Counted from the stretch's first letter, positions 2,642 to 30,472 are shown. The stretch: DNA of 64,000 bases from Candidatus Poribacteria bacterium (GCA_022825825.1 JAJDWA010000037.1:34-64033), one strand, 5' to 3'. Notes: generated by a model from the letters alone, not told the origin. Program-made: numbers and translations.

Positions 2642-2984
2642 ATTGATATTTTGAGGGTATCAACTAAACAATGATATTTGTCGACATTCTCCGATATTTG
2701 ATGTATGGTATCAGCAAGAAGTCAAAATATGCCGATGCGTCCGTTCCCGAAGACATTCACATTCAAGGGACTTTTGTTTCATAACTTCTACTGAAAAATG
2801 GGAGAAAACTTCGTGTTTTCTTTTACATCTGTTCACAATAACATACGTAAAAAAATATAAATCAGATAATAGAGTTATAGTAAAAACCATAATTATGGAC
2901 ACACTACGAATCAACGCCAAATGCGCTTTTATGTTTATATGCTTCATATTTTACCATAAATATCTTGACAACTAAACCCATATC

Positions 2985-3012
2985 TTGACAAATCCTCCTG
3001 ATTCGGTAAAAT
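2985..3012 (+). promoter_or_regulatory. Sigma-70-type promoter upstream of ECF-propeller paralogue 1
   Basis: TTGACA (2985-2990), 16 nt, TAAAAT (3007-3012). A near-identical block (atcttgacaaaNcctcc...ggtaaaata) recurs at 12784-12811 upstream of paralogue 4. Confidence 0.55.
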
Positions 3013-3063
3013 ATTACCTCATAGTCTCGGATCACTCCTCTTAGAAATATTTTTTCAGTGTTA

Positions 3064-3091
3064 TGCACCCGTTTTGCACCTAACTCGCGTC
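3064..3091 (+). promoter_or_regulatory. ECF-type promoter, paralogue 1
   Basis: TGCACC (3064-3069), 18 nt, CGTC (3088-3091), then TTTATAAAG. The same motif with identical spacing lies upstream of all four paralogues. Confidence 0.6.
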
Positions 3092-3185
3092 TTTATAAAG
3101 TACAGGAACGATGTTAGAGATGTAATCTTTTTTCATCAATACAAGGAAATAATGCTTAAAGTTTGCGATTATCAGAAGGTGACCT

Positions 3186-6100
3186 ATGAAAAACAACGAT
3201 ATTGAATTGGTCCGTCGTACCCTTAACGGTGATGAAGCTGCTTTTTCTCTCCTCGTCGAAAAATATCAAAAGCAGGTTCATGCGCTCGCTTGGCGGAAAA
3301 TCGGTGATTTCCATATTGCTGAAGAAATTACGCAAGACACTTTCCTGAAAGCGTATCAAAAACTTGCAACGTTGAAAAAACCGCATCGTCTGGCGGGATG
3401 GCTTTATGTGATTGCGACACGCTGCTGTCAGGCTTGGTTACGAAAAAAGCAGATACAGACCGAATCATTAGAAGAAATAGATTATGAAAAGATAGAACCG
3501 GAGGCGTATTCCCAATATGTCGCGGAGGAGCAAGCGAAAGTAACCGCTGCGGCACAACGTCGAGTCGTCAAAAAGATTCTCGCTACATTGCCAGAGAGTG
3601 AGCGCACTGTCATTACGCTTCACTACTTCGGTGAAATGACGTGTGAAGAAATGAGCGAATTTTTGGGCGTATCCGCAAACACAATCAAGAGTAGACTCCG
3701 TCGCGCACGTAACCGCTTGAAAAAGGAGGAACTGATGATCCGAGAAGCAATTAGTAACTTCCAAATTTCACCTAATTTAACCGATAACATCATGAAAGAA
3801 GTCGCAAGACTTAAACCTGCTGCACCTTCTGCCAGTAAACCTTTGATCCCGTGGGTAATAGGCGCTGCAAGTGCTGTTTTGATCGTGCTAATGCTCGGCA
3901 TTGGTAGTCAATACTTAACGCGTTTTCAGCAACCCTATAGTTTGGATACGCAGACTGAGATGACAGTTGAGCTTGTTGACGCACCTATTATGCTAAATCT
4001 TGAAATGAAACCGGATGTTCGTCATCAACTTGGAAATTCAAATGCACTTGGTCCAAGTGATAGTAACGGTCAGAAACCTGATGAGGTCCTATTTGCTGCA
4101 GCACAATCGAACGGAGAAGATATTACTACCCCCAAGCAACAATGGATCCAGTCTGAACCTATCATTGGAAGTGCTGTAGAAAATTTATATGCAACCGATG
4201 ACGGACAACTCTACACTGTTCTTGATGCGCATATATACAAATGGCAAAATGATAGAACGGGGTGGGAACAGATTAGTGGTGACATAAGAGACTATCATGA
4301 TAGACTGAATGAAACTACTCTTATAACTAATGTTCCGATAGCAAAGTGGGACAATACCCTTTATATTGTTTTAGAAAATTTACTATTGGCTTCAAAAGAT
4401 GATGGCAAGACATGGAAAATAGTTCATTCATGGACACAGGATTATTTTGACCCGCGTGAATTGGTGTTTACTGAACAAGCAATTTGGGTAATTTTTTCCC
4501 AAGGTGCTTTCCGTTCTGAGGATAAAGGTAAGACATGGAAGGATGTGGACAACAATGAATTATTTAAAGGTTATATCTTCTTTAAAGCCATACAAAACAA
4601 GGTATTTGTCGGAACATACACCGGACTTTATTTTTGGAACATCGATAGCTGGGAACGGATAGAATTACCGGTTCCTAAGGCATTAATAGTCCACAAAGCC
4701 ACAGCCACTAAAGATCGATTGTATGTAATGACAGGATTAGGTTATGATTTTTATGATGATAAAGCAGTCAGGGAGGGACGACAACGGACTTGGTGGATAT
4801 TTCGCTCAACCGATTTGGGGAATTCGTGGGAGGATATTACACCGACAAATGCCTGGCCCCTAAAAGCTGAGTCACCAGATATCCGACTTGTTGCTGCTGG
4901 CGAAACAATCATGTTAATGGGACGGGGTATTGTGCGTTCTACCGATGGAGGAGATACTTGGTTGCCCTTACAAGCACCTCACACTCTCCCTACAGATATA
5001 AAGTCTCACGGGCCTTCTGTGGCATTAAACGAGCATGTATTTTACGCTATAGGAAGAGGTCTACACCGTACCACTGATGGTGGCAAATCATGGAGCAAGG
5101 TAAATATCACTCCGAATAGGAGATGGCTTGGAATACAAAACTTACTCGCGTATAAACGGAACGAAAGAATGGAAAGCATGCTGCCGACTCTCTATGGGAT
5201 CGCTGGGAGTGGGATAGTAAAAACTACTGACAAGGGTAAGTCTTGGAAGCCTGTTCAGGTAGAAATACCTATGACCGCTCTTGTAAGAGAAGACCAACCA
5301 TCAATTATTCAGATAGTCAAATCCGATGGTGTTCTCTATGCGAAAGGTAGCAGTGATTACCCAATCGGGGAATTGCGCTGCTATCGCGTATCTGAAGATG
5401 GCAACATGTTGGTCCCTATTCAAGGCATGCCTACATTCGACTCAAGAGAATTAAAAGACTATTTGCGTAAGCCTCAAAACCTCTCTATTGAGGCGTTACA
5501 GAAAGATTTTTCGGGAGCGACTCTTTTTTTTAAGTTGCTGCTCCAAGTACCTCCTCAAGTACAGGATATACTCATCCGAGAGGGGTTTCGGGGGCAGTTT
5601 GCAGTCAGTGATAATACGTTTTATATCGAATACAATTATAAACTCTTCCGATGGGAACCGGGTGGTACAGAATGGCAAAACATTGGACAAGAAGAAACTT
5701 CACGCGGAAAAGGGGGATATCTCCAATTTGCTGTTTCAGGAAACACAGTCTACGTCGGAAAACGGGATGGCCATCTCGTCGTATCGTTTGATAGGGGAGA
5801 TAATTGGATTGATCTCACGCCAGCACTACCATTCCCTGTTAGATTCTTCAAAAAGATTGTAACTGCTGGGTCAACCGTTTATGTAGCAACAGACGCAGGT
5901 GTCCTTACATCAGACAATGGGAGGAATTGGCGAGTTGTGCCTGATACAGAAGGAGCAAATCTAATCATGGAAGAATTGACTGTTGATGGCACAACGATTT
6001 ATGGAATTACTAAAGACACAGGTATCTATCGTTTAGAGAGTGATAGTGGTATTTGGGAACAGATTATCTCAGAGATACCTGAGATCGCAAAAGTTAATAT

Positions 6101-6194
6101 AGCGAGTAACGGAACTTCTCTCGCTGTTGCTGGAAGCACTATATACCTTGGCACCCAATTCAACGGTATGCTTCATTTTACTCTCAAAGAATAA
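3186..6194 (+). CDS. ECF sigma factor fused via one TM helix to a BNR/Asp-box beta-propeller ectodomain (paralogue 1)
   Basis: aa 1-185 form a complete ECF sigma: region 2 GWLYVIATRCCQAWLRKK, region 4 HTH MTCEEMSEFLGVSANTIKSRLRRARNRLKK. The TM segment is LIPWVIGAASAVLIVLMLGIG. Eight Asp-box motifs follow (SKDDGKTW, SEDKGKTW, STDLGNSW, STDGGDTW, TTDGGKSW, TTDKGKSW, SFDRGDNW, TSDNGRNW). Confidence 0.88.
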   Translation: MKNNDIELVRRTLNGDEAAFSLLVEKYQKQVHALAWRKIGDFHIAEEITQDTFLKAYQKLATLKKPHRLAGWLYVIATRCCQAWLRKKQIQTESLEEIDYEKIEPEAYSQYVAEEQAKVTAAAQRRVVKKILATLPESERTVITLHYFGEMTCEEMSEFLGVSANTIKSRLRRARNRLKKEELMIREAISNFQISPNLTDNIMKEVARLKPAAPSASKPLIPWVIGAASAVLIVLMLGIGSQYLTRFQQPYSLDTQTEMTVELVDAPIMLNLEMKPDVRHQLGNSNALGPSDSNGQKPDEVLFAAAQSNGEDITTPKQQWIQSEPIIGSAVENLYATDDGQLYTVLDAHIYKWQNDRTGWEQISGDIRDYHDRLNETTLITNVPIAKWDNTLYIVLENLLLASKDDGKTWKIVHSWTQDYFDPRELVFTEQAIWVIFSQGAFRSEDKGKTWKDVDNNELFKGYIFFKAIQNKVFVGTYTGLYFWNIDSWERIELPVPKALIVHKATATKDRLYVMTGLGYDFYDDKAVREGRQRTWWIFRSTDLGNSWEDITPTNAWPLKAESPDIRLVAAGETIMLMGRGIVRSTDGGDTWLPLQAPHTLPTDIKSHGPSVALNEHVFYAIGRGLHRTTDGGKSWSKVNITPNRRWLGIQNLLAYKRNERMESMLPTLYGIAGSGIVKTTDKGKSWKPVQVEIPMTALVREDQPSIIQIVKSDGVLYAKGSSDYPIGELRCYRVSEDGNMLVPIQGMPTFDSRELKDYLRKPQNLSIEALQKDFSGATLFFKLLLQVPPQVQDILIREGFRGQFAVSDNTFYIEYNYKLFRWEPGGTEWQNIGQEETSRGKGGYLQFAVSGNTVYVGKRDGHLVVSFDRGDNWIDLTPALPFPVRFFKKIVTAGSTVYVATDAGVLTSDNGRNWRVVPDTEGANLIMEELTVDGTTIYGITKDTGIYRLESDSGIWEQIISEIPEIAKVNIASNGTSLAVAGSTIYLGTQFNGMLHFTLKE

Positions 6195-6206
6195 TGTATC
6201 CTGCCA

Positions 6207-6227
6207 GGGCGGTGTTAAATGCCGCCC
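6207..6227 (+). terminator. Conserved 3-prime hairpin after paralogue 1 (no clear U-tract)
   Basis: GGGCGG-tgttaaatg-CCGCCC lies 13 nt after the stop codon. An identical copy follows paralogue 2, and decayed copies follow paralogues 3 and 4. Confidence 0.4.
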
Positions 6228-6433
6228 ATTCCTACCTTTCGCAATCTCAAATTCACCTCAAGTTTGCCTTAATCGCTATCTTTCAGATATTTTATGAAGC
6301 ATCTTCTGTGAACTAAAATGTCATCACCTCTGATACGTTAGCGTTTGTGCAGATATGAAAAAAGAGAGGAAAATGGTATAATATTGATACATTATCTATT
6401 TTTCCCTTATTTTTAAAATATTTTGCAGAATTA

Positions 6434-6461
6434 TGCACCAGTTTTCCTCTTAACATGCGTC
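6434..6461 (+). promoter_or_regulatory. ECF-type promoter, paralogue 2
   Basis: TGCACC, 18 nt, CGTC, then ACTATAGCG. The 21-nt block gcagaattatgcaccagtttt is identical to the one at paralogue 4. Confidence 0.6.
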
Positions 6462-6487
6462 ACTATAGCGCGATCGGAGGTAATTCC

Positions 6488-9400
6488 ATGAAAACTACTG
6501 ATGTTGAGCTCATTAATCGCATTCTAAATGGCGATGATACCGCCTTCACTGAACTTGTAAAAAAGTATCAAAAACCAGTTCACGCGCTTGTTTGGCGTAA
6601 AATTGGAGATTTCCACGTCGCCGAGGAAATTACACAGGATACATTCCTAAAGGCATATCAAGGATTAGCGACACTGAAGAAACCGCAGAGTTTTGCAAGT
6701 TGGCTTTACGTGATTGCCACTAACAATAGTAATACGTGGCTTCGTAAAAAGCGTTTGTGGACACAGTCGCTTGAAGAGACAAGTAACTCACAGTTTGGAA
6801 AATCGACATATTCACAATACGTCGTTGAAGAGAAGGAACGGACAGCAGTAGAAGCACAACGCGAAGTCGTCCAAAAGTTGCTTGCGAAACTTCCAGAGAG
6901 CGAACGCACGGTCATTACGTTACACTATTTCAGCGATATGTCCAGTGCAGAGATTGGCGCGTTTTTAGGTGTATCGGCAAATACGATTCGGAGTCGCCTC
7001 CGCAGAGCACAACAACGTTTACAAAAGGAGGAAACGATGATTAGAGAAGCGCTTGACCATTTTCAAATTTCACCGAACCTAACTGATAACATTATGCGAG
7101 AAATCGCACGACTTAAACCTGTTGCACCTTCAAGAAGCAAACCCTTAGTACCGTGGGCGATTGCAGCTTCAAGTACTGTTTTAATTGTGTTGATGCTTGG
7201 TATAAGTAGTCAATACTTAGCATTTTTTCAAAGACCTTATAGTTTAGACGCCCAAGCTGAGACGACCGTTGAACTTGTTGACACACCTATTGTGCTAAAT
7301 CTTGAAGTAGAACCAGATGTACTCCGTCAACTTGGGAATTCAAATGCGTTAGGTGTAAGTGAGAATGAAGGTCAGAAACCTGATGAGGTCCTATTGGCTG
7401 CTGCCCAGGCAGATGGAGAAGATGTGTCTGTGCCTAAACAGCAGTGGATTCAGGCTGAACCTATCAAAGGCAGCCCACTCACGAGTATGATGGGGACACC
7501 TGAAGGCGATATATATGTGCTCGGTGAGGAACTTAGTCTCTACAAATTACCTGCCGATGGAAAGCAGTGGCAATATATCTCTGACATGGGCTCACTGGAT
7601 ACCTGGTGGACACCGAGTCCGCCTATCGCAAAGTGGAAAAATACCCTTTACATGGTACCATCAAATAAACTCTTTGCTTCAATCGATGATGGGAAGACAT
7701 GGGATTTACTCTACACATGGCAGGAAGAAAAATATTGGACTCCGATTGAATTGGTGCTAACAGAGGATGCGTTTTATGTTGCTTTTACAAGCGGGATTTT
7801 GCGTTCTGAGGATAAGGGTAAAACATGGAGAGCAATGAATAAAGAATTAGGAAAAATTAGTTTCTTAGTCAATATTCAACATACACTTTTTGTTGCAGCA
7901 GACACTGGATTCTACCGCCTCGATCCTGATGTTGAGATTTGGGAACGCTTAAAGTTCCCAGCACCGACAATGGGACGCTTTCTTTCAGTTGCATCGACTG
8001 AAAAGAATCTTTATGTTGCAGCAGAATTTAGTTGGGACGCGGTAAATCCTGCTGACGTATCGCGAGGATTAGAGCGTGGTTGGTGGATATTCCGATCAAC
8101 TGACCTTGGGGATTCATGGGTGGATATAACACCGACAAACGCTTGGCCCGTAAAGGGATGGTCCCCCGAAATCACACTTATTGCTGCAGGTGAAGCACTT
8201 CTGGCGATGGAAAATGGTATGGTTCGGTCTACTGATGGAGGAAATACGTGGATGCCGCCGCAGACACCCGACACTTCTCCTTCAACGATTAGTGGATTTC
8301 CATCTGCGGTGTTAAACGAACGTGTTTTTTATGTTCATAGCTGGGACGGGCTCCATCGTTCTACTGATGGCGGAAAATCATGGGAGAAGATAAATATCCC
8401 TGGGGAGAAGGAAATAAGTCCAATAGACAATCTAATCGTGTATCAAGAGAACGATAAAGTACAAAGCACGCTCCCTACTCTCTACGCGAGATTTGGAGGT
8501 GAGTACTGGAGATTGAAAGGAGAGATAGCAAAAACTACCGACAATGGTAAATCTTGGAAAATTATTGAGATGGAAATACCACCAATCACGGAACGCGACA
8601 GAGAGGAACAACCAAGTATTACTCAGATAGTAAAATCGAAAGGTGTTATCTATGCAAAAAATGTAGATTCTTTAGGTAGAGGGAAACCATATATCTATCA
8701 AGTATCTGTAGATGACAAGACGCTTGTGCCATTTCAAGGAATGCCTTACATTGACTCAATGAATTTAGAGGAGCAGTTGTTCTTTCAAAAACTCCCAGTA
8801 AAAGATCCCTTGTATGTCCCGGTTGAAAATTGGGATGAAAATTTTTCTGGTGCTATGCAATTCTTTAGGCAGTTGGAAAATGGGAATCCTCGGCAACAAG
8901 AGGAACTTATTCAACAAGGACTAAGAGGGATTTTTTCGGTTAGTGATGATACATTCTATATGGAATACAACTTTAAACTCTTCCGATGGAAGCTGGGTGA
9001 GACAGAATGGTACGACACTGGACAGGAAGAAACAGTTGAATTGACTTTGGAAGTAGCAAGAAAAAACCTCAAGCTTGCTGTTTCAGGTGACACTGTCTAC
9101 GTCGGAAAACGGGATGGACACCTTGTTGTATCTTTTGATAGGGGAGATAATTGGATCGATCTTACCCCTGCTCTGCCGTTTCCTGTTAAAACTTTCAAAG
9201 AGATTGTGGTTGCTGGTTCCACCGTGTATGTAGCAACGGACGCAGGTATTATTACTTCAGATGATGGGAGAACTTGGCAAGTCGTCACTGATGCAGCAGG
9301 TACAAATCTTATCATGGAGCATTTGGCTGCTGACGGTGAAACCCTTTACGGTATTACTAAAAACACGGGTGCCTATCGCTTGGAAAGCGGTGTTTGGGAA

Positions 9401-9511
9401 CAGATTGTCTCAGAGGTGCCCGATAACGTGACGTCTCTTGCTGTTGATGGAGACACGTTATATGTAGGTACAGAATATAACGAAATGCTCCATTTCAATT
9501 TTGAAAAATAA
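6488..9511 (+). CDS. ECF sigma - TM - BNR/Asp-box propeller fusion (paralogue 2)
   Basis: Same architecture as paralogue 1, with eight Asp boxes. The start was moved from the track ATG at 6455, which sits inside the promoter -10 region. The new start is the ATG at 6488, preceded by GGAGG, and aligns with the MK..D N-termini of the paralogues. Confidence 0.88.
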   Translation: MKTTDVELINRILNGDDTAFTELVKKYQKPVHALVWRKIGDFHVAEEITQDTFLKAYQGLATLKKPQSFASWLYVIATNNSNTWLRKKRLWTQSLEETSNSQFGKSTYSQYVVEEKERTAVEAQREVVQKLLAKLPESERTVITLHYFSDMSSAEIGAFLGVSANTIRSRLRRAQQRLQKEETMIREALDHFQISPNLTDNIMREIARLKPVAPSRSKPLVPWAIAASSTVLIVLMLGISSQYLAFFQRPYSLDAQAETTVELVDTPIVLNLEVEPDVLRQLGNSNALGVSENEGQKPDEVLLAAAQADGEDVSVPKQQWIQAEPIKGSPLTSMMGTPEGDIYVLGEELSLYKLPADGKQWQYISDMGSLDTWWTPSPPIAKWKNTLYMVPSNKLFASIDDGKTWDLLYTWQEEKYWTPIELVLTEDAFYVAFTSGILRSEDKGKTWRAMNKELGKISFLVNIQHTLFVAADTGFYRLDPDVEIWERLKFPAPTMGRFLSVASTEKNLYVAAEFSWDAVNPADVSRGLERGWWIFRSTDLGDSWVDITPTNAWPVKGWSPEITLIAAGEALLAMENGMVRSTDGGNTWMPPQTPDTSPSTISGFPSAVLNERVFYVHSWDGLHRSTDGGKSWEKINIPGEKEISPIDNLIVYQENDKVQSTLPTLYARFGGEYWRLKGEIAKTTDNGKSWKIIEMEIPPITERDREEQPSITQIVKSKGVIYAKNVDSLGRGKPYIYQVSVDDKTLVPFQGMPYIDSMNLEEQLFFQKLPVKDPLYVPVENWDENFSGAMQFFRQLENGNPRQQEELIQQGLRGIFSVSDDTFYMEYNFKLFRWKLGETEWYDTGQEETVELTLEVARKNLKLAVSGDTVYVGKRDGHLVVSFDRGDNWIDLTPALPFPVKTFKEIVVAGSTVYVATDAGIITSDDGRTWQVVTDAAGTNLIMEHLAADGETLYGITKNTGAYRLESGVWEQIVSEVPDNVTSLAVDGDTLYVGTEYNEMLHFNFEK

Positions 9512-9523
9512 AATCCATTATCT

Positions 9524-9544
9524 GGGCGGTGTTAAATGCCGCCC
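9524..9544 (+). terminator. Conserved 3-prime hairpin after paralogue 2
   Basis: GGGCGG-tgttaaatg-CCGCCC, identical to 6207-6227. Confidence 0.4.
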
Positions 9545-9596
9545 TTACTCATCTCTATTCTCTTTTTTCTCCAAATACCTCTTTTTTGCACAATTA

Positions 9597-9624
9597 TGCA
9601 ACCGTTTTGCATCTAACTTGCGTC
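9597..9624 (+). promoter_or_regulatory. ECF-type promoter, paralogue 3
   Basis: TGCAAC, 18 nt, CGTC, then ACTATAGTT. Confidence 0.55.
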
Positions 9625-9675
9625 ACTATAGTTTGATATGTTATTAATCAAACTATCTATCTTTGGAGATACCTC

Positions 9676-12600
9676 ATGACAAACGACGATGTTGCACTTA
9701 TCAGACAAATTCTCGCTGGTAATGAAACCGCCTTCGCTGAACTTGTGAAAAAATATCAAAAACAGGTTCACGTGCTGGCGTGGCGAAAAATTGGAGATTT
9801 CCACATCGCTGAGGACATCGCCCAGGATGTCTTCCTGAAAGTGTATCAAAGGCTTCACACCCTGAAAAATTTGAACCAGTTTTCCGGATGGCTCTATGTA
9901 ATCACGACACGCCTTTGTGCCACGTGGCTACGCAAAAATCGGATTCAAACGCAACCGTTGGAGGACGTAGAGGAAACGATGGGACAGTGGGATGCTTATT
10001 CACAACATGTTGTAGAGGAGCGGGCAAACACGGCAGTTGAAACGCAACGCGAAGTTGTCAAGAAACTACTTGCGAAATTGAAAGAGAGCGAACGCACAGT
10101 GATGACGCTCCACTACCTCGGTGAGATGACGGTTGAAGAGATTAGCAAGTTTTTAGGGGTCTCTGTCGGAACGATTAAGAGTCGACTACAACGTGCACGG
10201 CACCGTTTACAAAAGGAGGAAACAATGATTAGAGAAGCACTCGACCATTTCCAAATTTCACCGAACCTAACTGAGAACATCATGCAAGAAATCAATCGTC
10301 TTAAACCCGCTGCACCTTCTGTCAGCAACCCTTTTGTGCCTTGGGCAATTGCTGCTTCAAGTGCCCTTTTGATTGTATTGATATTTGGTATAGGCAGCCA
10401 ATACCTACTACATTTCCAGAAACCTTATAGTTTGGATAAGCAGTCTGAAATGATGGTTAAACTTGTTGAAACACCTGTTGTGCTAAACCTTGAAGTAAAA
10501 CCGAATATCCGAAATCAACTTGTGAATGCAAATGCACTTGATAACGGCGATAATAACGGTCAAAAACCTGATGAAGTTTTACTGGCTGCCGTCCAAGAAG
10601 AAGGAGAAGACATTGCTGTTTCCAAACAGCAGTGGATTCAGTCTGGCCCCATCAAAGGAAGCGAGGTAATTAGTTTGCTTGCAACACCAGCGGGTGAACT
10701 TTACGCTTTTGCTGATAGGAATATTTATAAATTGGAAACTGATGGGAAAGAATGGCAACACATCTTTGATACTACCTTACTGGATACTTATTATGAGGAG
10801 GGTGAGGCAGTTATGAAAAAATGGGACAATACGCTCTATCTGATACTGTCTACAGACCTCTTCGCTTCAAAAGATGATGGTAAAACGTGGGATTTAGTTC
10901 ACTCATGGCCAGAAGGTCTTTGGTACCCTATGGAATTGGTCCTAACAAAACAAGCTTTTTATCTCCTTTTTTATCTGGGAAGAAATAATGTCTTTCAAGC
11001 TAACGATCTTTTTCGTTCTGAAGATTCTGGCAAGACATGGGAGGTCATAAATGGTCCTCCAATAGATAGAAACATTCAATCAATTGTTAATATACAGGAC
11101 ACGTTGTTTGCAAGGACAAATTATGCCCTCTACCGCTTTAGCGATGAAAACTGGCAACGTATAGAATTTCCAGTGTCTGTTGGATATATCCATTCAATTG
11201 CCACGGCAGAAGAGAAACTATATGTTACGGCAGAGGTAGGTGACGATGTGTTAGATACGGGTAAAGTATCACAAGGCCTTGAACGGGGTTGGTGGATATT
11301 TCGTTCAACTGACCTCGGCGAGTCTTGGGATGATATAACACCAATAAACGCATGGCGCGTAAAGGGGCGAGCTCCCCGTCTCAAACTAATTGCTGTTGGT
11401 GACACACTTCTGGCAGTGGAACATGGTATGGTCCGGTCTACCGATAGTGGAAACACCTGGCTACCCCCACAATTATTAGGCACTGTCCCTTCAATGAATG
11501 CCAATATAGCTAATAAAGACTTTGCGGCAGCAGTAAACGAACGCATTTTTTATGTTAGTGGGAGAAACGGATTGCATCGCTCCACTGATAGCGGTAAATC
11601 ATGGAATAAGATTAATATCGCTGCGGATAGGAGTAAAATAGATACTCTCATCGCGTATAAAGGGAACGGTGAAAGGGATAACATGCCCCCGACTCTCTAT
11701 GCAAAGTATGAAGCAAGGATCGTCCAAACTACTGATGAAGGTGAGTCTTGGAATGTCGTTCAAATAGAAATTCCGATGACGGATCCTGAGAGAGAAAAAC
11801 CACCAGATATTACGCATATAACCGAATCTGATGGTGTTCTCTACGCAAAGGGAGGCGGATCTTTTCACAGAAGCAAAACACATATATATCGCATATCTAC
11901 AGACGGTAATATGCTTGTACCGATTCAAGGCATGCCCATCTACGACTTACTCGAATCGTATGGTAAGTCGGGCGATATATTGAGAAACCAATTTAACGTC
12001 CCAGATAAATCTGTCCTTGAACAGATGCAAGAGGGGATTCCTGGCGCAACCCAGTTCTTTAAACAGTTGACACAAACAGACCGCGAAAATCAGTTTAAAC
12101 TTTTTAGGCTGGCCCAGTTTAGTCCGTTTGCTGTTAGTGGTGACACATTCTATATGGAATACAATTATAAACTTTTCCGATGGAAATTCGGTGATACAGA
12201 ATGGTCAGACACCGGTGTGGAAGAAACTGTTGAATTGACTTTAGACATAGCGGGGAAAGATCCTAAACTTGCTGTATCAGGAAATACTGTCTACTTTGGT
12301 AAACGGGATGGACACCTTGTTCAATCATTAGATGCAGGACATACTTGGAAAGATATCCCATTGGACTTTATGTTTTCTACGCCTATTCAAGCCTTCAAGG
12401 ATATCGTATTTGCGGGTTCTACGGTATATGTAGCAACGGACGCAGGTGTTGCTGTATCAGGTGGCGGAAAACATTGGCGAGCCGTCACTGACTCTGAGGG
12501 AACAAATCTTATCATGGAACACTTAGCAGTAGATGGCACAACGGTTTATGGTGTAACCAAAGACACGGGTATCTACCGTTTGGAAAGCGGTGTTTGGGAA

Positions 12601-12711
12601 CAAGTTGTTTCAGCGATTCCTGATAACGTAACGTCTCTCGCTATTGATGGAAACACGTTATACGTAGGCACACAAAGCAACGGTATGCTTCATTTTAATC
12701 TTGAAGAATAG
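9676..12711 (+). CDS. ECF sigma - TM - BNR/Asp-box propeller fusion (paralogue 3)
   Basis: Sigma regions 2 and 4, TM segment FVPWAIAASSALLIVLIFGIG, and seven clear Asp boxes plus one degenerate box. The RBS GGAGA lies upstream of the ATG. Confidence 0.88.
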   Translation: MTNDDVALIRQILAGNETAFAELVKKYQKQVHVLAWRKIGDFHIAEDIAQDVFLKVYQRLHTLKNLNQFSGWLYVITTRLCATWLRKNRIQTQPLEDVEETMGQWDAYSQHVVEERANTAVETQREVVKKLLAKLKESERTVMTLHYLGEMTVEEISKFLGVSVGTIKSRLQRARHRLQKEETMIREALDHFQISPNLTENIMQEINRLKPAAPSVSNPFVPWAIAASSALLIVLIFGIGSQYLLHFQKPYSLDKQSEMMVKLVETPVVLNLEVKPNIRNQLVNANALDNGDNNGQKPDEVLLAAVQEEGEDIAVSKQQWIQSGPIKGSEVISLLATPAGELYAFADRNIYKLETDGKEWQHIFDTTLLDTYYEEGEAVMKKWDNTLYLILSTDLFASKDDGKTWDLVHSWPEGLWYPMELVLTKQAFYLLFYLGRNNVFQANDLFRSEDSGKTWEVINGPPIDRNIQSIVNIQDTLFARTNYALYRFSDENWQRIEFPVSVGYIHSIATAEEKLYVTAEVGDDVLDTGKVSQGLERGWWIFRSTDLGESWDDITPINAWRVKGRAPRLKLIAVGDTLLAVEHGMVRSTDSGNTWLPPQLLGTVPSMNANIANKDFAAAVNERIFYVSGRNGLHRSTDSGKSWNKINIAADRSKIDTLIAYKGNGERDNMPPTLYAKYEARIVQTTDEGESWNVVQIEIPMTDPEREKPPDITHITESDGVLYAKGGGSFHRSKTHIYRISTDGNMLVPIQGMPIYDLLESYGKSGDILRNQFNVPDKSVLEQMQEGIPGATQFFKQLTQTDRENQFKLFRLAQFSPFAVSGDTFYMEYNYKLFRWKFGDTEWSDTGVEETVELTLDIAGKDPKLAVSGNTVYFGKRDGHLVQSLDAGHTWKDIPLDFMFSTPIQAFKDIVFAGSTVYVATDAGVAVSGGGKHWRAVTDSEGTNLIMEHLAVDGTTVYGVTKDTGIYRLESGVWEQVVSAIPDNVTSLAIDGNTLYVGTQSNGMLHFNLEE

Positions 12712-12783
12712 TATCCTTCCTTGGGCGGTACTGAACGCCACCCTTCCGACCTCTATCCTATCTCCCATTCAATTCCTAACATC

Positions 12784-12811
12784 TTGACAAACCCTCCCCA
12801 TTTGGTAAAAT
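12784..12811 (+). promoter_or_regulatory. Sigma-70-type promoter upstream of paralogue 4
   Basis: TTGACA, 16 nt, TAAAAT. This duplicates the 2985-3012 block. Confidence 0.55.
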
Positions 12812-12858
12812 AGTATTTCACTGTTTCCAACCATTCAATTTGTAAATATGCAGAATTA

Positions 12859-12886
12859 TGCACCAGTTTTACTCCTAAGTCGCGTC
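12859..12886 (+). promoter_or_regulatory. ECF-type promoter, paralogue 4
   Basis: TGCACC, 18 nt, CGTC, then ACTATAAAG. Confidence 0.6.
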
Positions 12887-12911
12887 ACTATAAAGCGATC
12901 GGAGGTGATCC

Positions 12912-15900
12912 ATGAAAAACGATGATGTTCAACTTATTCATCGCATTCTTGATGGTGATGATACCGCTTTCACCGAACTTGTGGAAAAATATCAAAAGTC
13001 TGTCCATGCGCTTGCGTGGCGAAAGATTGGAGATTTCCATATCGCAGAAGAGATTACGCAAGATACTTTCCTGAAAGCGTATCAAAAATTAGGCACATTA
13101 AAGAAGCCTCAGCGTTTTGCCAGCTGGCTTTATGTGATAGCCTCACGTCGCTGCGTTGCTTGGGCGCGTAAAAAGCGTGTGTGGACGCAGCCACTTGAAG
13201 AGACCAGCAGCCTGCAGGTAGAAAAATCGACTTACTCACAATATGTCATTGAAGAAAATGAACGGACAGCAGCAGAAGCACAACGCGAAGTCGTCAAGAA
13301 ATTGCTTGCCAAGCTCCCAGAGAGTGAACGCACGGTCATTACGTTACACTATTTCGGCGATATGTCCAGTGCAGAGATTGGCGCGTTTTTAGGTGTCTCG
13401 GCAAATACGATTCGGAGTCGTCTCCGCCGAGCACAGCACCGTTTACAAAAGGAGGAAACAATGATTAGAGAAGCACTCGACCATTTCCAAATTTCACCGA
13501 ACTTAACCGATAACATCATGCGAGAAGTTGCCCGCCTGAAACCTACTGCACCTTCTGGCAGCAAACCTTTGATGCCGTGGGTAGCTGCTGCATCAAGTGC
13601 TATTTTGATTATATTGATGCTTGGTATAGGCAGCCAACGCTTAGTGCGGTTTCAGAAACCGTATAGTTTGGATGCAAAGGCTGAGACAACAGTTGAACTC
13701 GTTGATGCGTCTGTTGTGCTAAATCTTGAGGCAAAACCAAATGTCCAAGATCGACTTGGGAATCCAAATATAGTTGGTAAAAGTAATAACGGTCAGAAAC
13801 CTGATGAGGTTTTATTGGCTGCATCGCAGACAGAAGGCGAAGACAAGGTATCCGTTCCTAAACAGCAGTGGACTCAAACTGGAGCCATCAAGGGAAGTTT
13901 TGTAGACAGTTTACTTGCAACATCTGAGAGTGAACTATACGTTTATGCAAATGGACACTTATACAAATTGCCAACCGATGGAACAGGATGGCAACACGTC
14001 AACGACTTCAGCTCACTAATTGATATTTGGCATGTTAATAGACCACTTATGGCGGAGTGGAACAATACCCTCTATATTGTGTTAATTAATAAACTATATG
14101 CTTCAAACGATGATGGCAAGACATGGAATGTAGTTCACTCATGGCGAGAAGATAAGTACTGGTCTCACCGAGAATTGTTCCTGACTGAAAAGACATTTTA
14201 TCTCACTTTTAATAATGGGATTATGGGTTCGGAGGATCAAGGCAAGACGTGGAAGGATATCAGCGATGAATTCCCCAATATTCCTTACTTTTTTGTAACA
14301 ATACAAGACACAGTATTTGCTGTAATAGGTTCTGGTCTCTATCGTAGAAACGGAGACAACTGGCAACGTTTAGAATTACCAGGGCCAGAAAAACTGAGCA
14401 TCGTTTCAGTTGCAGGCACTAAAGATCGTCTGTATGTGATAGGATTTCTTGCTCATGATGGGCTTATTCCTGATCTTGATATAATATCAAAGGCACAAAA
14501 ACGTACTTGGTGGATATTCCGTTCAACTGACCTTGGAAATTCGTGGAATGATATAACGCCAACAAACGCTTGGTCTCTAAAGGGATTCCCACCTGATAAG
14601 ATTGTTGCTGCTGGTGAAACACTCTTAGTGATGGAACGAGGTATGGTGCGCTCTACCGATGGTGGAGATACATGGATGCCATCACAATTACCTGGTACTT
14701 CCCCCTCAATACAATTTTCTGTTTCTGATAATGTGGCATTAAACGAACATATTTTTTATATAAATAGTTGGGAAGACGGTCTTACTCGCTCTATTGATGG
14801 TGGTAAAACGTGGGAAGGAGTGAACATCACTCCAGATCAGGAAAAGGATGCAGTATTTAATCTCATCGTTGATAAAGGAAGCAATGAAGGGCAAAACACA
14901 ACGCCTACTCTTTACGCGCGAGTCTACACAAGAGAAGCAACAGAAATTGTTAAAACGATGGACGCAGGAAAATCTTGGCAAGTTGTTCAAGTAGAAATAC
15001 CTCTCACGGACCCTTACAGAGTTCCACCATCTAAGATAGATCAAATTGTTAAGTCTGGTGATATTCTTTATGCAAAAGGTGGAGGCGATCATACCAACAG
15101 AAAGTTGCGTCTATATCGTATATCTGCAGATGGCAGTATGTTAGATCCTATTCAAGGTATGCCGACCTTTGACTCAACGCATCTATTTCACCTATTGCAT
15201 TTAGGAGCTGCTTCCAGAGGATCAGATAAGTCCTACACAGAAAAGCTGCAGAAAAGTTCTGCTGGGGCAACACAGTTCTTTAAGCAGTTAGCTCAAATGA
15301 AGCAGCAACAAGCAGAGATATTCTACAAATTCGGATTACAAGGTGCATTTGCTGTTAGTGATGACACATATTATATGGAATATAATTTTAAGCTTTTTCG
15401 ATGGGAACCCGGTGATACTGAATGGTACGATACAGGACTTGAAGAAACCTTCGAATTAACTTCGGACATAGCGAGGAGAAAACTCAAACTTGCGGCATCA
15501 GGCGACACCGTCTACGTTGGGAAACGGGATGGACATCTCGTTGTATCATTTGATAGAGGGAATAATTGGATTGATCTCACACCAGGGCTGCCATTTCCTA
15601 TCAAAACTTTCAGAGAGATTCTGGTAGCTGAGTCCACCGTTTATGTAGCAACGGACATAGGTATTATTACGTCAGATGATGGAAGAAGTTGGCATACTAT
15701 CGCCGATGCAGATGGAACTAATCTCATTATGGAGCATTTAGCTGCTGATGGCACAACGGTTTATGGTGTTACCAAAAACACAGGTATTTATCGCTTGGAA
15801 AATGATATTTGGGCACAAGTTGTTTCAGAGATTCCTGAAAGCGTAACTTCTCTTGCTGTTGATGGGAATACCCTATACGTAGGCACACAAAACCGTGGTA

Positions 15901-15926
15901 TGCTTTATTTCACTCTTGATGAATGA
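12912..15926 (+). CDS. ECF sigma - TM - BNR/Asp-box propeller fusion (paralogue 4)
   Basis: Same architecture, with eight Asp boxes. The RBS GGAGG lies 7 nt upstream of the ATG. Confidence 0.88.
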   Translation: MKNDDVQLIHRILDGDDTAFTELVEKYQKSVHALAWRKIGDFHIAEEITQDTFLKAYQKLGTLKKPQRFASWLYVIASRRCVAWARKKRVWTQPLEETSSLQVEKSTYSQYVIEENERTAAEAQREVVKKLLAKLPESERTVITLHYFGDMSSAEIGAFLGVSANTIRSRLRRAQHRLQKEETMIREALDHFQISPNLTDNIMREVARLKPTAPSGSKPLMPWVAAASSAILIILMLGIGSQRLVRFQKPYSLDAKAETTVELVDASVVLNLEAKPNVQDRLGNPNIVGKSNNGQKPDEVLLAASQTEGEDKVSVPKQQWTQTGAIKGSFVDSLLATSESELYVYANGHLYKLPTDGTGWQHVNDFSSLIDIWHVNRPLMAEWNNTLYIVLINKLYASNDDGKTWNVVHSWREDKYWSHRELFLTEKTFYLTFNNGIMGSEDQGKTWKDISDEFPNIPYFFVTIQDTVFAVIGSGLYRRNGDNWQRLELPGPEKLSIVSVAGTKDRLYVIGFLAHDGLIPDLDIISKAQKRTWWIFRSTDLGNSWNDITPTNAWSLKGFPPDKIVAAGETLLVMERGMVRSTDGGDTWMPSQLPGTSPSIQFSVSDNVALNEHIFYINSWEDGLTRSIDGGKTWEGVNITPDQEKDAVFNLIVDKGSNEGQNTTPTLYARVYTREATEIVKTMDAGKSWQVVQVEIPLTDPYRVPPSKIDQIVKSGDILYAKGGGDHTNRKLRLYRISADGSMLDPIQGMPTFDSTHLFHLLHLGAASRGSDKSYTEKLQKSSAGATQFFKQLAQMKQQQAEIFYKFGLQGAFAVSDDTYYMEYNFKLFRWEPGDTEWYDTGLEETFELTSDIARRKLKLAASGDTVYVGKRDGHLVVSFDRGNNWIDLTPGLPFPIKTFREILVAESTVYVATDIGIITSDDGRSWHTIADADGTNLIMEHLAADGTTVYGVTKNTGIYRLENDIWAQVVSEIPESVTSLAVDGNTLYVGTQNRGMLYFTLDE

Positions 15927-15972
15927 TGTATTATTTCTGGGCGGTGCTGGTGCCTATTCCTACCTCATCCAA

Positions 15973-18900
15973 TTAAAGTTCGGCACTGACCGTCATCTCT
16001 AAGCGATGTTCAGGTTTGCGTTGTTTAGTTGAAAGCAAACGGTAATTGAGTCTAAATAGTAAATCAGTGAATTTGCGCAATCTATAATCCGCTGTGGCGC
16101 GCACTTCATGACTGATGCCTTCATAAAAATAGTATTGTGCAAAAGGTACACCGCCATCGCTTTTGCCGTAGCCGAGTGTATGATTAACTTCAATGCGTCC
16201 CTTACCGAGAATACTATACGTGATACGATTTTCAAAAGAGAAGGTGCGCGTCTTTGCTGTAGACTCTTCATCAAGTTGTTCTATATCGGTTGTGCGTTTG
16301 TATCCACCGGTACCGCTCCATCGGACCGCGCGGCTCAGTTCATATTGGATTTTTAACTCTGTTATCTGTTCAAATTGGCGTAAGTCAGAGATTGGTGTTG
16401 GTGGAAAGTCGTTGGAATTAGGGTTCGGCATCCCTTCCACTTCCATTGAGTCAAGTTCAGGAAAGTAGAGTTGGCTATACTTTTCAGTTTCGCGGCGTTG
16501 CTCCCAGTTTGCACCAACTGAAAAACGTTGCGTTGGATTGACTGAAAAAGCGACATCCCACGTTCGGTAATTTCGCAGCCGTTCTTGTGTATTAATCCGT
16601 CGATTGAGTGTGCGTCCTGTCCGTAGATTAACTTCAAAACTAAAAAGAGGTGAAGGAGAAAATTCAACACGATGATGTTGGTTAACCCGACCAAAAAGTG
16701 TTTGTGAACCTTGTAGGATTTGGAGCAGATAGAGAGAGAGAGTATCTTCCGCTTCTTGTTCTTCTGTCAACCATAGGCGCGTCTGGATTCTGAGTGCATT
16801 TAAGAACCACGTGAATGGCTGTCGCTTTTTAGTTGTGGGTTTTTCGTTGTCAGCGGTAGCGGCTGAGGAAAGAGCACCTCGACTCACGAAATCTGTTCTG
16901 GATCGTTGGTTTCGGGCGCGGCGGGCAAAAAATTGGCGCGGTTGGAGTCGGAGTCGAAATGCGGCGTCTACTGCTGTTGTCGGTTTGTCCCCTACATTCT
17001 GGTAAATTTTGATATATGTTCCTTCCTCTGGGTCTTCTACATATCGCAAGTCATCTAATCTGACGTAATACCCTTCGCCGGGTTGGATTCTATGTCCTGT
17101 GAGCGGGTGAATGTCAGTGTATATCTCACGACGTTGGGTTGTCAGTTTTTTATCCAATTCATAAGTGACTTCAGCGTCAATTGCACGGTTGAAAGGCGTA
17201 AATTGGATTGTTGCATCTGCTAATTGTGTTGCCACATCTGTGCCGAGTTCTGAATGCGCTTTTACTGTCCGACGTGCAAGATTTGTTTTTATATTTATCC
17301 ACTGCCCTTGCTGCGAAAAAAGACCTACTTTCCATGTTCGCGCTGTGGTAGACCGCATCCAATCAGAAATTCCTAAAGTTTCGCCATCAAGCGTCAATAA
17401 CGGTTCTTTACCAAAAGCCCGTTCCAATTCGTAACTCGTGTTAATGGATACCCATTTGAAATCAACTAAGTTAACACGTCCAGAAGTTCGGTTACGTCTG
17501 CGGTTGCGTACAGCGGTGTAATCATCAATTGAAGCGAACCGATCATAAGTGCCGACAAATTCAAAAGGAGAAAGAAGATAGGATAGACTTCCCTCTTGCC
17601 TTGATTTTCGGAAATTTTCTTCTGTGCCTGTGGTCTCCTCATTTGATTCTATGAGGGATGTACTACGATAATCATTCCAGCGAAGGTTTGGGAATTTTGC
17701 CAAAATAGAAGTTTTGTCTGTCGGTTTACGCGAAAGATCACCTTCCACAGAACTCGGTCTCCGTCCATTGTCTCTTTGATATTGCGAAGGTGGTTGGAAT
17801 AAATTTTCCGGTTGCTGGGATATAGGTGAAAAAACATTGCTTCTACTTGAACGTGGTGTGAAATTTGCCCCCCAATTGAGATTATTACGACGTGTAGTTT
17901 GCCCTTCCACTGCTGCCTCAATCGTCCTACCGCCACCTAAATCAAACCGTAGCCATTGGTACGGCAGTAATTTGAAGTCAAGATTTAACGTTTGTTCATC
18001 AGATTCCTGCGAGATAGAACTTGGATCGAACAGAAAAGCGTCCTCAAATCCTTCAGTTGTATATTGTGTCCCGTAACGATCGCGAGTGCGATTACTAAGG
18101 GACGCACCAACAGGTAAAAAACCGGCATCCATGGATCGTAGATCAAAGTTGCCTATTACTTTCGGACGCAGCTTGTTAGACCATGTAGGAAAATCCCAAT
18201 TTGTGTAGCCGATTAATTTCCAAGCTTGGTTTATATCTTTCCTGTCTACCGTAGAATACGTGTTTCTATCAACTGCACTAAAAGCGAATTCTCCATCAAT
18301 CCATGTCTGTTCGGCAAAATTCAGTCGACTCTCTAATCCCCATACCGTATGTTTCTGTGGTGGTGTAAGGAGAATCCCATCCCCATCCGGATCCAGCGTA
18401 TTTTGGCGGAGTGCGTCCAGATCGTCATCATCAAAAAGGACTAAAGCCTGCTCAGGATCATCTAAATCTGCTTCCACAGCGTAAGAAGCACCAAGCGATA
18501 ACCATTCCCCTGGAAACACGAAAACGTTATTGATACCGTATAGATTTTGTTGATATGCCCGGTCTTCAGGAATATACTCAAAGTCAACACGAATTACATC
18601 GTTACTTGTTATGAGATGCTTGCTGTTGAACTCAATAATTGGATCACCGTATTCACGGATAATGTAATCGTTGTTTTCTCCGCGCCGCATCTTCTCTCCG
18701 TTCAGCCAAACAATTTCACTCCCCGCTTTGACAATAACGAACTGATTGCCCACATCAAGCCGATATTCACTGCGTCCCTCCTCACCACGAATCACTTTGC
18801 TTGTGGATTGCCCCTTTGGCAGCGCGCTCGGAATGAGATGGAATTTGGTTCTCTCAAAATTACCTTCAACTTTGACACCTTCAAGTGCACGCGGGAAAAA

Positions 18901-19671: not shown

Positions 19672-19702
19672 CCTTCTACCTTTCCATTTTTGAGTCCTTC
19701 CA

Positions 19703-27451: not shown

Positions 27452-27796
27452 TTAAAGAAAACTTGCAATTGCCTCTGCTTCTGTATCATATCGGTCAAAT
27501 ATCGTTACAAGTTTAGCCATAATAATAAGACTTCTAATGTTTCCACCGATGTTGAGGAGAACCACTCTGCCATTATTGCGTCTGATAGATGCATAGGCAG
27601 CAACAATTACACCCAATCCAGAACTATCCATCATTTGGACACGTTCCATATTTAAAATCATAAATACTGGTTCACCACTGGCCTCTTGAATTTGGTTATC
27701 AATGATGTTTTTCAGTGCAATTGTATTAGGGCCAACAAGGTTACCCTCAATATCTAAAATAGTAACACTCCCTTTATGTCGTAGGTTGATTTGCAT
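27452..27796 (-). CDS. STAS-domain anti-sigma-factor antagonist (SpoIIAA/RsbV-like)
   Basis: Starts at MQINL, with the RBS GAAGGAG upstream. The conserved phosphorylatable-serine motif MDSSGLG is present. Confidence 0.85.
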   Translation of the reverse strand: MQINLRHKGSVTILDIEGNLVGPNTIALKNIIDNQIQEASGEPVFMILNMERVQMMDSSGLGVIVAAYASIRRNNGRVVLLNIGGNIRSLIIMAKLVTIFDRYDTEAEAIASFL

Positions 27797-27938
27797 AAAT
27801 ACTCCTTCTTTTAAAATTTTGCCTTCCTGAAAGCACAGATAAGCCAACTTTGTTAGAATATAAACATTCGTTAATGTCAAGGTACTCCTTTTGGATTAGT
27901 ATCTGTTAACGTACGTGACATTCTCCAGCTATCTGGAG

Positions 27939-28367: not shown

Positions 28368-28439
28368 GTTTTAGGCTCCTTCTTTGTGAATGCAAATGTC
28401 CGTGTTGTATATCATTCAAATAAATTTCCTGCAATGCAA

Positions 28440-29720: not shown

Positions 29721-29764
29721 ATCTTTAGCCTTAAGTTTTCAATTCAGAAATTTGGTTAATGAAA

Positions 29765-30421: not shown

Positions 30422-30472
30422 CTAATTTACACCCTCAAATAATCATAATTCGTCGGTGTAAAAATAAAGTCT

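Follow-up and report, generated by a model that had tools for sequence, protein, structure and literature searches.

A tandem array of predicted membrane-tethered ECF sigma factors with putative GH74-like double-propeller ectodomains in Candidatus Poribacteria

Four paralogous genes with a common architecture

A stretch of 64,000 nt of DNA from a Candidatus Poribacteria bacterium (GCA_022825825.1, JAJDWA010000037.1:34-64033; hereafter the window) carries a tandem array of four paralogous genes, each of which encodes in a single polypeptide an extracytoplasmic function (ECF) sigma factor, a predicted membrane anchor and a large ectodomain, the putative sensor (Table 1). The order of parts is the same in each protein: the ECF sigma domain is followed by a 37-aa linker, a single transmembrane helix and a conserved stalk (~80 aa), and an Asp-box ectodomain of 680 aa completes the chain. 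The start of gene 2 is most likely the ATG at 6488 rather than that at 6455, to which the open frame extends (1018 aa), because a promoter motif (see below) overlaps the upstream ATG. Over the whole protein the paralogues exhibit 55–63% pairwise identity, with the linker and transmembrane helix as the best conserved part (72–82%), the sigma domain at 63–83% and the ectodomain at 52–56%. No separate anti-sigma open reading frame (ORF) fits the intergenic gaps of 164–293 nt, which are occupied by a 3' hairpin and by promoter motifs; a sigma factor that is encoded together with a transmembrane segment and an extracytoplasmic domain, and is not accompanied by an anti-sigma gene, is characteristic of the functional class of 'one-component' ECF fusions. 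The hairpin (GGGCGGTGTTAAATGCCGCCC or a variant of it) is G+C-rich, has no T-run and was not called by the terminator scan. As it is present 3' of every gene and the promoter 5' of every gene, the duplicated unit comprises the promoter, the gene and the hairpin. All long ORFs of the window other than the four array genes lie on the minus strand, and the G+C content of the array (0.41–0.44) is that of the remaining window.

A complete sigma factor of group 4, made up of the sigma2 and sigma4 domains, occupies the first 183 aa. The TIGR02937 (sigma70-ECF) profile scored 92–99 bits in all four proteins (cutoff 42.9), and Sigma70_r2 and Sigma70_r4_2 exceeded their cutoffs in all four as well; Sigma70_ECF passed its cutoff too, the match in gene 1 being a partial one, and the profile searches identified no region 1 or region 3 in any of the four. 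The nearest solved sigma factor by sequence is SigW of B. subtilis (E-value 1e-22). The equivalog models for SigW were missed by a wide range (PRK09641: 104–120 bits, cutoff 209; TIGR02948: 95–108 bits, cutoff 243), and the array genes are therefore not SigW orthologues; no other equivalog model reached its cutoff either. In GenBank the homologues bear just the name 'sigma-70 family RNA polymerase sigma factor'. Among 118 aligned family members, C81 is the only Cys residue conserved in at least 90% of the sequences.

A single strongly hydrophobic 19-mer (aa 221–239, Kyte-Doolittle 2.1–2.4, every other segment ≤1.4) marks the transmembrane helix, which is rich in small residues. The consensus of 178 members reads E[TP]MIREALxHFQISPNLTDNIMQEVxRLKPxAPSxxKPLxPW for the linker, AAS...LMLGxGxQ for the transmembrane segment and FQxPYSLD thereafter. 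The linker holds a short predicted amphipathic helix and is devoid of any Cys or His motif. Pfam searches with aa 182–330 at E-values up to 10 revealed nothing relevant and no zf-HC2, and the sole NCBIfam match of this region was NF052375 'anti-sigma factor', far below its cutoff (E-values 0.0015 and 0.0021 for genes 1 and 2), in which the linker helix and the transmembrane helix align with positions 43–115 of the 217 of the profile. In many zinc-finger anti-sigma factors, a helix of the form P-x-[FL]-x-x-x-[IV]-M directly precedes the transmembrane helix. The notion that the proteins are sigma/anti-sigma fusions which keep just the last cytoplasmic helix of the anti-sigma factor is weakly supported by these similarities.

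From the topology, the ectodomain must be located in the periplasm. The AlphaFold2 model, calculated for the full-length protein with 118 homologues, is all-beta over aa 320–1002, with the predicted local distance difference test (pLDDT) mostly at 80–93 and ~14 blades as counted from the DSSP string. A Foldseek comparison with the PDB placed structures of GH74 enzymes (xyloglucanases) in the top 18 positions (E-values 5.5e-22 to 3e-19, TM-score by target 0.45–0.50, root-mean-square deviation ~9–10 Å, sequence identity 13–15%), and next in the ranking were the hybrid two-component sensors BT4673 and BT4663 of Bacteroides (TM-score 0.28–0.30). Thus, the modelled fold of the ectodomain is that of a GH74-like tandem propeller. 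At the sequence level the detected similarities were confined to Ycf48, a BNR glycosyl hydrolase and sortilin, each weak. Pfam returned matches to BNR (over the cutoff in genes 1 and 2), Sortilin-Vps10 and PSII_BNR, and in the four window proteins none to WD40, Reg_prop or Y_Y_Y. Canonical Asp boxes ([ST]x[DN]xGxx[WFY]) occur 7–8 times per protein, the first six within approximately aa 398–690 and the others at around aa 867–930.

The initial annotation of the array had been made from the DNA sequence alone, and most of it is borne out by this analysis. ORFs of 1002–1018 aa, profile matches, hydrophobic segments and Asp boxes agree with four consecutive genes of ~1000 aa and one architecture; the complete N-terminal ECF sigma factor, the conserved linker, the single transmembrane helix, the propeller nature of the ectodomain, the union of sigma factor, anchor and putative sensor in one polypeptide and the position of the array as the only plus-strand block of the window hold likewise. 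It ascribed eight Asp boxes to each protein, and the canonical copies number seven or eight.

Table 1. Coordinates of the array and of other features of the window
Feature	Position	Strand	Remarks
Gene 1	3186..6194	+	1002 aa; ECF sigma aa 1-183, linker aa 184-220, transmembrane helix aa 221-240
Gene 1, outer part			stalk ~aa 241-320; double-propeller ectodomain ~aa 320-1002
Gene 2	6488..9511	+	1007 aa from ATG 6488; architecture of gene 1
Gene 3	9676..12711	+	1011 aa; architecture of gene 1
Gene 4	12912..15926	+	1004 aa; architecture of gene 1
Predicted transmembrane helix, gene 1 (aa 221-240)	3846..3905	+	hydrophobicity; model helix aa 221-244, low confidence
Predicted transmembrane helix, gene 2	7148..7207	+	equivalent of gene 1
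Predicted transmembrane helix, gene 3	10336..10395	+	equivalent of gene 1
Predicted transmembrane helix, gene 4	13572..13631	+	equivalent of gene 1
Ectodomain, gene 1 (aa 320-1002)	4143..6191	+	~14 beta-blades (model); helical insert aa 754-800
Putative ECF-type promoter motif TTATGCACCCGTTTTGCACCTAACTCGCGTCTTTATA	3061..3097	+	gene 1
Putative ECF-type promoter motif	6431..6467	+	gene 2; ends 20 nt before ATG 6488
Putative ECF-type promoter motif	9594..9630	+	gene 3
Putative ECF-type promoter motif	12856..12892	+	gene 4; ends 19 nt before ATG
Candidate distal promoter, sigma-70-like, TTGACA-16-TAAAAT	2985..3012	+	gene 1; consensus match only
Candidate distal promoter, sigma-70-like	6355..6382	+	gene 2; equivalent, consensus match only
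Candidate distal promoter, sigma-70-like	12784..12811	+	gene 4; equivalent, consensus match only
Internal Shine-Dalgarno AGGAGG, 5-nt spacer, ATG of Met184 AGGAGGAACTGATG	3724..3737	+	gene 1
Internal Shine-Dalgarno and ATG184	7026..7039	+	gene 2
Internal Shine-Dalgarno and ATG184	10214..10227	+	gene 3
Internal Shine-Dalgarno and ATG184	13450..13463	+	gene 4
3' hairpin	6207..6227	+	after gene 1; read from sequence
3' hairpin	9524..9544	+	copy after gene 2
3' hairpin	12723..12743	+	variant after gene 3
3' hairpin	15939..15954	+	degenerate copy after gene 4
1253-aa ORF	15973..19734	-	converges on the array end
884-aa protein	23896..26550	-	leucine-rich repeats, GHL15
Partner-switching cluster	27452..33423	-
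702-aa WD40 protein	36458..38566	-
1430-aa frame	47030..51322	-	ECF sigma, FtsZ, DNA polymerase III alpha
DUF4097 'toastrack' protein	57394..58794	-	pair spans 57394-59455
Stand-alone ECF sigma	58871..59455	-

A modular family in Poribacteria

The source names of the homologues are those of Candidatus Poribacteria, and the best 120 database matches are full-length proteins (~1000 aa) with the identical set of domains, several of which share 5-Mb chromosomes. With each GTDB species represented by a single genome, a scan revealed >592 pattern matches and at least 431 confirmed relatives. The following counts refer to the best related loci (62–63) of these relatives, i.e. to the DNA surrounding family genes. 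According to the record titles, the 62 best loci come from ~41 Poribacteria assemblies, with one titled only 'uncultured bacterium'. These loci contain 201 distinct genes with the module of sigma4, linker, transmembrane helix and stalk (144 of them with an Asp-box ectodomain), which are found at 1–6 per 20 kb and always on a single strand; at least 14 such genes are located within ~51 kb (three overlapping loci) of the chromosome OZ243938.1. A six-gene family array of this chromosome also encloses a gene for a 329-aa beta-propeller of the PD40/Tricorn type (L001, 16450–17439).

On its downstream side the array adjoins the convergent 1253-aa ORF, for which Pfam gave no match at an E-value of 0.01, followed by an NHL-repeat gene and a ROK kinase gene. 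The 1253-aa ORF (59–85% identity) is kept in the same position with its two neighbours in eight other Poribacteria genomes, and next to this flank the number and type of the family members vary from genome to genome. Of the two origins that the initial annotation had envisaged for the array, an insertion is not supported, given the uniform composition of the window and the syntenic downstream flank. A lineage-specific and dynamic expansion, on the other hand, is strongly supported by the restriction of the best loci to Poribacteria, by the variable array at the conserved flank and by the copy numbers in related genomes (given above).

Searches with aa 182–1002 against 1.84 billion representative proteins returned full-length relatives down to ~29% identity, together with many proteins (693–1279 aa) that match only the first ~120 residues of the query, i.e. 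the linker, the transmembrane helix and the stalk, at their own positions 182–300. On the N-terminal ECF sigma module there are alternative ectodomains: WD40 double propellers, Big_5 Ig-like domains, a transglutaminase core and CarboxypepD_reg, of which at least the Big_5 form has a Poribacteria source name. What stays constant in the family is thus the sigma factor, the linker, the transmembrane helix and an extracytoplasmic stalk of ~60–80 aa, whereas the part that serves as the putative sensor can be exchanged. The Poribacteria paralogues with WD40 double propellers also fit the precedent quoted in the initial annotation, namely ECF sigma factors with a transmembrane helix and a WD40 extension. 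The propeller is the part in which the paralogues of the array diverge most, and therefore they probably sense different ligands.

Or perhaps the array proteins are mainly membrane-anchored periplasmic glycoside hydrolases or lectins of the GH74 type, in which the sigma domain is a minor or decaying appendage? The GH74 enzymes are the best structural matches of the ectodomain, and partial matches to the NCBIfam 'F510_1955 family glycosylhydrolase' (83–107 bits, cutoff 175) point in the same direction. Such a role is nevertheless very improbable in the light of the low identity to GH74 (see above), of the better conservation of the sigma domain and linker compared to the ectodomain, of the intact motifs of sigma regions 2 and 4 in the 118 aligned members and of the retention of the same sigma module on unrelated ectodomains.

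Promoter motifs and the internal start at codon 184

When the regions upstream of the four genes were aligned, a motif of 37 nt became apparent, TTATGCAmCnGTTTTnCnnCTAAnnnGCGTCAyTATA, which occurs in four copies in the window, solely upstream of the array genes (0 expected by chance). Its form AAC ... CGTC with an 18-nt spacer (TGCAmC-N18-CGTC) suggests an ECF promoter. In genes 2 and 4 the short distance of the motif to the start codon (19–20 nt) leaves space for a short GGAGG leader only. A position weight matrix built from the motif identified 142 distinct sites in 63 loci and the window, at least 133 of which are directly upstream of family genes, with preferred distances to the ATG of 19–20 or 42–45 nt, and a variant, TG[C/T]AA[C/T]...[C/T]GTCTA, precedes the genes of a distant subfamily. 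A promoter of this type at each gene is usual for ECF sigma factors with positive autoregulation and suggests it here. The four motifs hardly differ from one another, so that the sigma factors of the array are also likely to activate each other's genes.

Among the non-family sites in the loci, strong ones precede genes for a 281-aa secreted protein (L010) and a 237-aa membrane protein (L035), neither with a Pfam match, and there is one further weak match (L061). In the metagenome scan, 8 of 15 motif sites were upstream of family genes and another preceded a gene for a small lipoprotein. The motif was also found before a gene for a 287-aa secreted protein with a LamG/concanavalin-like appearance by eye (L065 and L068, contigs Ga0209543_1000265 and Ga0209543_1000009), which is a candidate member of the regulon outside the family. 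The non-family sites are too few for defining a regulon.

The boundary between sigma4 and the linker coincides with a putative second start of translation. In all four genes of the window AAAAGGAGGAAnnnATG is present at codon 184 (the region from the Shine-Dalgarno (SD) sequence to the ATG may also be written as AAGGAGGAAnnnATG), and in each gene this is the only in-frame occurrence of GGAGG-N4-9-start. The internal SD sequence (AAGGAGG) is stronger than those of the annotated starts (GAAGGTG, GGAGGT, GGAGAT). Met184 is invariant in the 118 aligned members, and the codons which bear the SD sequence (AAGGAGGAA; the synonymous SD-less counterpart would be AAAGAAGAA, i.e. AAA GAA GAA) are nearly fixed in 182 family genes: Lys is AAG in 151/157, Glu is GAG in 174/177 and Glu is GAA in 179/182, compared to a family-wide background of 30% AAG and 30% GAG and to synonymous variation of the neighbouring codons. 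Among 58 conserved two-fold-degenerate columns these three adjacent codons rank 6th, 3rd and 2nd by fixity; two of them (AAG and GAG) hold the minor codon at 97–98%, and the next column with a minor codon reaches 83%. In 840 nt of mRNA scanned around codon 184, the eight 40-nt windows with the least structure are all found at 0 to +48 nt relative to ATG184 (−0.5 to −2.3 kcal/mol, compared to a mean of −5.3 and a standard deviation of 1.65). In addition, eight gene predictions in the databases open exactly at MIRE..., and AAAGAGGAAnnnATG is kept in two of three genes of the distant subfamily. Taken together, the codon constraint, the unstructured mRNA, the database starts and the SD sequence predict initiation of translation at codon 184, which would yield a sigma-less, anti-sigma-like isoform of 819 aa. 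A programmed frameshift at the SD sequence was considered as well and rejected: there is a +1-frame TGA in ATGAT, yet neither a slow zero-frame codon nor a slippery site.

Several observations weigh against initiation at codon 184. A broader test showed that other codon columns of the family are also strongly fixed, and shared ancestry therefore explains part of the codon conservation; the low mRNA structure is in part due to the lower G+C content of this stretch; and Met184 is missing in some distant members. These points leave room for a reading, restricted to the SD-ATG184 feature, in which the full-length protein is the only product and the site is either a non-working fossil of the ribosome-binding site and start of a coupled anti-sigma gene or is kept for another reason, e.g. 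ribosome pausing. Coupled sigma and anti-sigma genes typically overlap by their stop and start codons as ATGA, and ...GGAGGAAnnnATGAT contains exactly this type of overlap; the many fixed columns in what is a fairly young family, and the distant members with Val or Ile at this position or with a weaker SD sequence, are also as one would expect of a relic. We find this explanation possible and yet rather doubtful, since paralogues of 55–60% identity keep the minor codons AAG and GAG while the neighbouring codons drift, the minimum of mRNA structure lies exactly downstream of the ATG, and a fossil would be expected to decay, whereas the internal SD sequence outdoes those of the annotated starts.

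Unfused pairs of sigma and anti-sigma genes were found in none of the 63 loci, and ORFs starting at Met184 occur there in two cases only, L044 (10193–12493) and L050 (13373–15814). In both, a stop codon or frameshift interrupts the sigma domain and the remaining frame opens at the equivalent of Met184 (MIREAL...). As ancestral split forms they were rejected on account of the broken sigma domains; what they represent is either pseudogenes or family members that naturally lack the sigma domain.

Proposed mechanism, related systems and genomic context

The array proteins can best be understood as one-component sensors, i.e. fused sigma and anti-sigma factors from which the sigma domain would be freed by regulated proteolysis, and this is the explanation that we hold to be probable. 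At rest, the tether would keep the sigma domain at the inner membrane, away from the core RNA polymerase. A ligand or a change of state at the propeller, probably involving a glycan or another component of a surface or matrix, would trigger a site 1 cut in the conserved stalk and then an intramembrane site 2 cut of the transmembrane helix, which would set the sigma domain free in the cytoplasm, as in the RsiW/sigma-W system and IutY. The initial annotation had named cleavage in the linker as one option, next to action at the membrane; our analysis makes the transmembrane helix or the stalk the likely place. The freed sigma domain would transcribe from the family promoter, with positive autoregulation and probable cross-activation of the neighbouring paralogues, and would also switch on a few genes outside the family, most of them for secreted proteins. 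The product of the internal start (Met184 to the end) would be a type II membrane protein whose cytoplasmic portion is a tail of 37 aa containing a short helix, followed by the transmembrane helix and the propeller. Its shape would be that of a minimal anti-sigma factor, and this isoform would buffer the system or set its threshold. Release by proteolysis is proposed because of the relation to SigW, the processing module common to differing sensors and the precedent of IutY and of the predicted ECF48, ECF52 and ECF53 fusions.

Some of the results speak against this mechanism. The similarity of the linker to anti-sigma factors is weak (18 bits for NF052375), and a search of the PDB with a profile of the linker and transmembrane helix gave the transmembrane peptide of Notch3 as its sole match, rejected as a chance similarity of transmembrane helices. 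Docking of the linker to the sigma domain has no structural support, the N-terminal 320 aa having a pLDDT <50 both in the full-length model and in a second AlphaFold2 run on aa 1–245 alone (23 sequences). Neither a site-2 protease nor a site-1 protease is encoded anywhere in the window, and few non-family genes stand behind the motif in the surveyed loci and metagenomes.

A mode of action that needs no release is conceivable: the full-length protein could bind the core RNA polymerase at the membrane, like ToxR or CadC, and act mainly on its own array, held at the membrane by transertion (co-transcriptional membrane insertion of the encoded proteins), with the propeller protein (enzyme or lectin) as the main output. 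This would be in keeping with the position of nearly all motif sites upstream of family genes and of about half of those in the metagenomes, with the same-strand tandem arrangement of the genes, with a flexible-looking linker rich in Pro, Ala and Ser (PAAPSxSKP) after the C-terminus of sigma4 and with an ectodomain fold shared with a glycoside hydrolase family. The motif survey was limited to DNA around family genes, which biases it to self-targeting, and the tether measures only ~37 aa. Moreover, PMC8999054 and PMC7826278 describe no membrane-resident sigma factor, and IutY, the sole fusion there with evidence for processing, is activated by proteolysis. We therefore regard action without release as improbable. 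A small chance is given to a combination in which each frame has two products, the tethered sigma factor and the sigma-less isoform, and the sigma factor, perhaps unreleased and at the membrane, serves largely its own array. Such an array would amplify itself and supply a set of periplasmic propeller proteins, with different ligands of the host or matrix for the individual propellers.

For the proteolytic mechanism the two-protein counterpart is SigW, which is controlled by regulated intramembrane proteolysis of RsiW, a protein with a cytoplasmic helix directly before an alanine-rich transmembrane helix. The SigW promoter, TGAAAC-N16-CGTA, is of a similar flavour to the TGCAAC-N18-CGTC of the array; SigW and RsiW are, however, two separate proteins. 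As modelled, the ectodomain resembles the GH74 xyloglucanases, which consist of two seven-bladed units, in the tandem propeller of ~700 aa and in the Asp-box repeats. A tandem propeller is also found in BT4663, according to the title of its structure a periplasmic glycan sensor of two propellers, and in the likewise double-propeller BT4673. The identity to these proteins is 11–15%, and in place of a kinase or of hydrolysis the array proteins have a fused sigma factor as their output.

A close parallel is found in IutY from Pseudomonas putida, a FecI-type ECF sigma factor fused to a FecR-type anti-sigma factor and classified under ECF243. Cleavage by Prc at site 1 and by RseP at site 2 frees its sigma domain, and a truncated form is constitutively active (PMC8999054). 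IutY and, in the proposed reading, the array proteins have a sigma factor and a membrane-spanning anti-sigma part in a single polypeptide; IutY possesses a full FecR-type domain and takes part in TonB-dependent cell-surface signalling, whereas the array proteins possess a 37-aa segment and a 680-aa double propeller, and Pfam found no FecR match in the four of them. The actinobacterial groups ECF48, ECF52 and ECF53 (e.g. SCO4117, whose extracytoplasmic domain binds carbohydrate) have a C-terminal extension with one or two transmembrane helices and an extracytoplasmic domain, and their activation is predicted to be proteolytic (PMC8999054). They differ from the array proteins in phylum, in the fold of the ectodomain, in the length of the extension (up to ~400 aa) and in a zinc-finger (ZAS-type) domain between the sigma factor and the transmembrane segment, where the array proteins have no zf-HC2.

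ECF57 of the Planctomycetes, with 5.3 copies per planctomycetal genome (PMC7826278), is proposed to be regulated via protein interaction and via two conserved Cys residues that would link sigma2 and sigma4 (PMC8999054). The likeness lies in the multiple copies and the long C-terminal WD40-like propellers, which have their equivalent in the WD40 double propellers of the Poribacteria sister paralogues; the window genes differ in having Asp-box instead of WD40 repeats and one conserved Cys (C81) instead of two. ECF57, which we take to be derived from ECF01-Gob, appears to be the nearest described group, set apart by the WD40 and Cys-pair features. The principle is known (IutY, ECF52, ECF57). The array proteins differ from these systems in their phylum, in a minimal linker that contains neither a zinc finger nor FecR, in an ectodomain of GH74-like fold that is replaced by others within the family, in the extent of the tandem amplification and in the putative internal start; the conserved promoter at every gene and the SD-ATG at codon 184 are new and go beyond the initial annotation. 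In the literature searched, no paper deals with ECF sigma factors of Poribacteria or with BNR repeats in the extensions of ECF sigma factors. Neither Poribacteria nor BNR is mentioned in the main text of the ECF re-classification (PMC7826278) or in a study of ECF evolution (PMC7671368), and the single-cell genomics study of Poribacteria (PMC3909097) makes no mention of sigma factors.

Elsewhere in the window, all on the minus strand, there are further sigma factors and repeat proteins. The 1430-aa frame combines, with no stop in between, an ECF sigma factor (Sigma70_r2 and r4_2, aa 31–180), a complete FtsZ (Tubulin and FtsZ_C, aa 211–519) and DNA polymerase III alpha (PHP, DNA_pol3_alpha, finger and HHH_6, aa 553–1428); the junction of the sigma factor and FtsZ has an SD-like AAAGGGGGAAACT followed by an ATG (Met197). 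The same architecture (~1345–1440 aa) occurs at 60–89% identity in >110 protein clusters, the named ones being from Poribacteria, and we know of no described sigma-FtsZ-DnaE fusion. A stand-alone ECF sigma factor is followed by a DUF4097 'toastrack' protein, its likely anti-sigma partner, which indicates that the genome also has ordinary two-gene ECF systems. The partner-switching cluster encodes a STAS protein, an RsbW-like HATPase_c_2 kinase, a response regulator-SpoIIE phosphatase, a HEAT-repeat protein, a HAMP-HisKA-HATPase histidine kinase and a second STAS protein. The 702-aa protein is a WD40 protein, and the 884-aa protein combines leucine-rich repeats with a GHL15 glycosyl-hydrolase-like domain; both types of repeat proteins are reported to be abundant in Poribacteria single-cell genomes (PMC3909097).

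With hundreds of members and interchangeable sensors on a fixed module, the family may be the main transmembrane signalling device of Poribacteria. Marine sponges harbour these uncultured bacteria as dominant symbionts, and the clear promoter motif is useful for the definition of regulons in such organisms. The proteins form a natural series of one-component ECF sigma factors with a 37-aa linker, which may reveal how little of an anti-sigma factor suffices, and they offer a testable case of internal translation initiation within a putative sigma/anti-sigma fusion. The compact units of sigma factor, promoter and sensor could also serve as orthogonal parts in synthetic biology.

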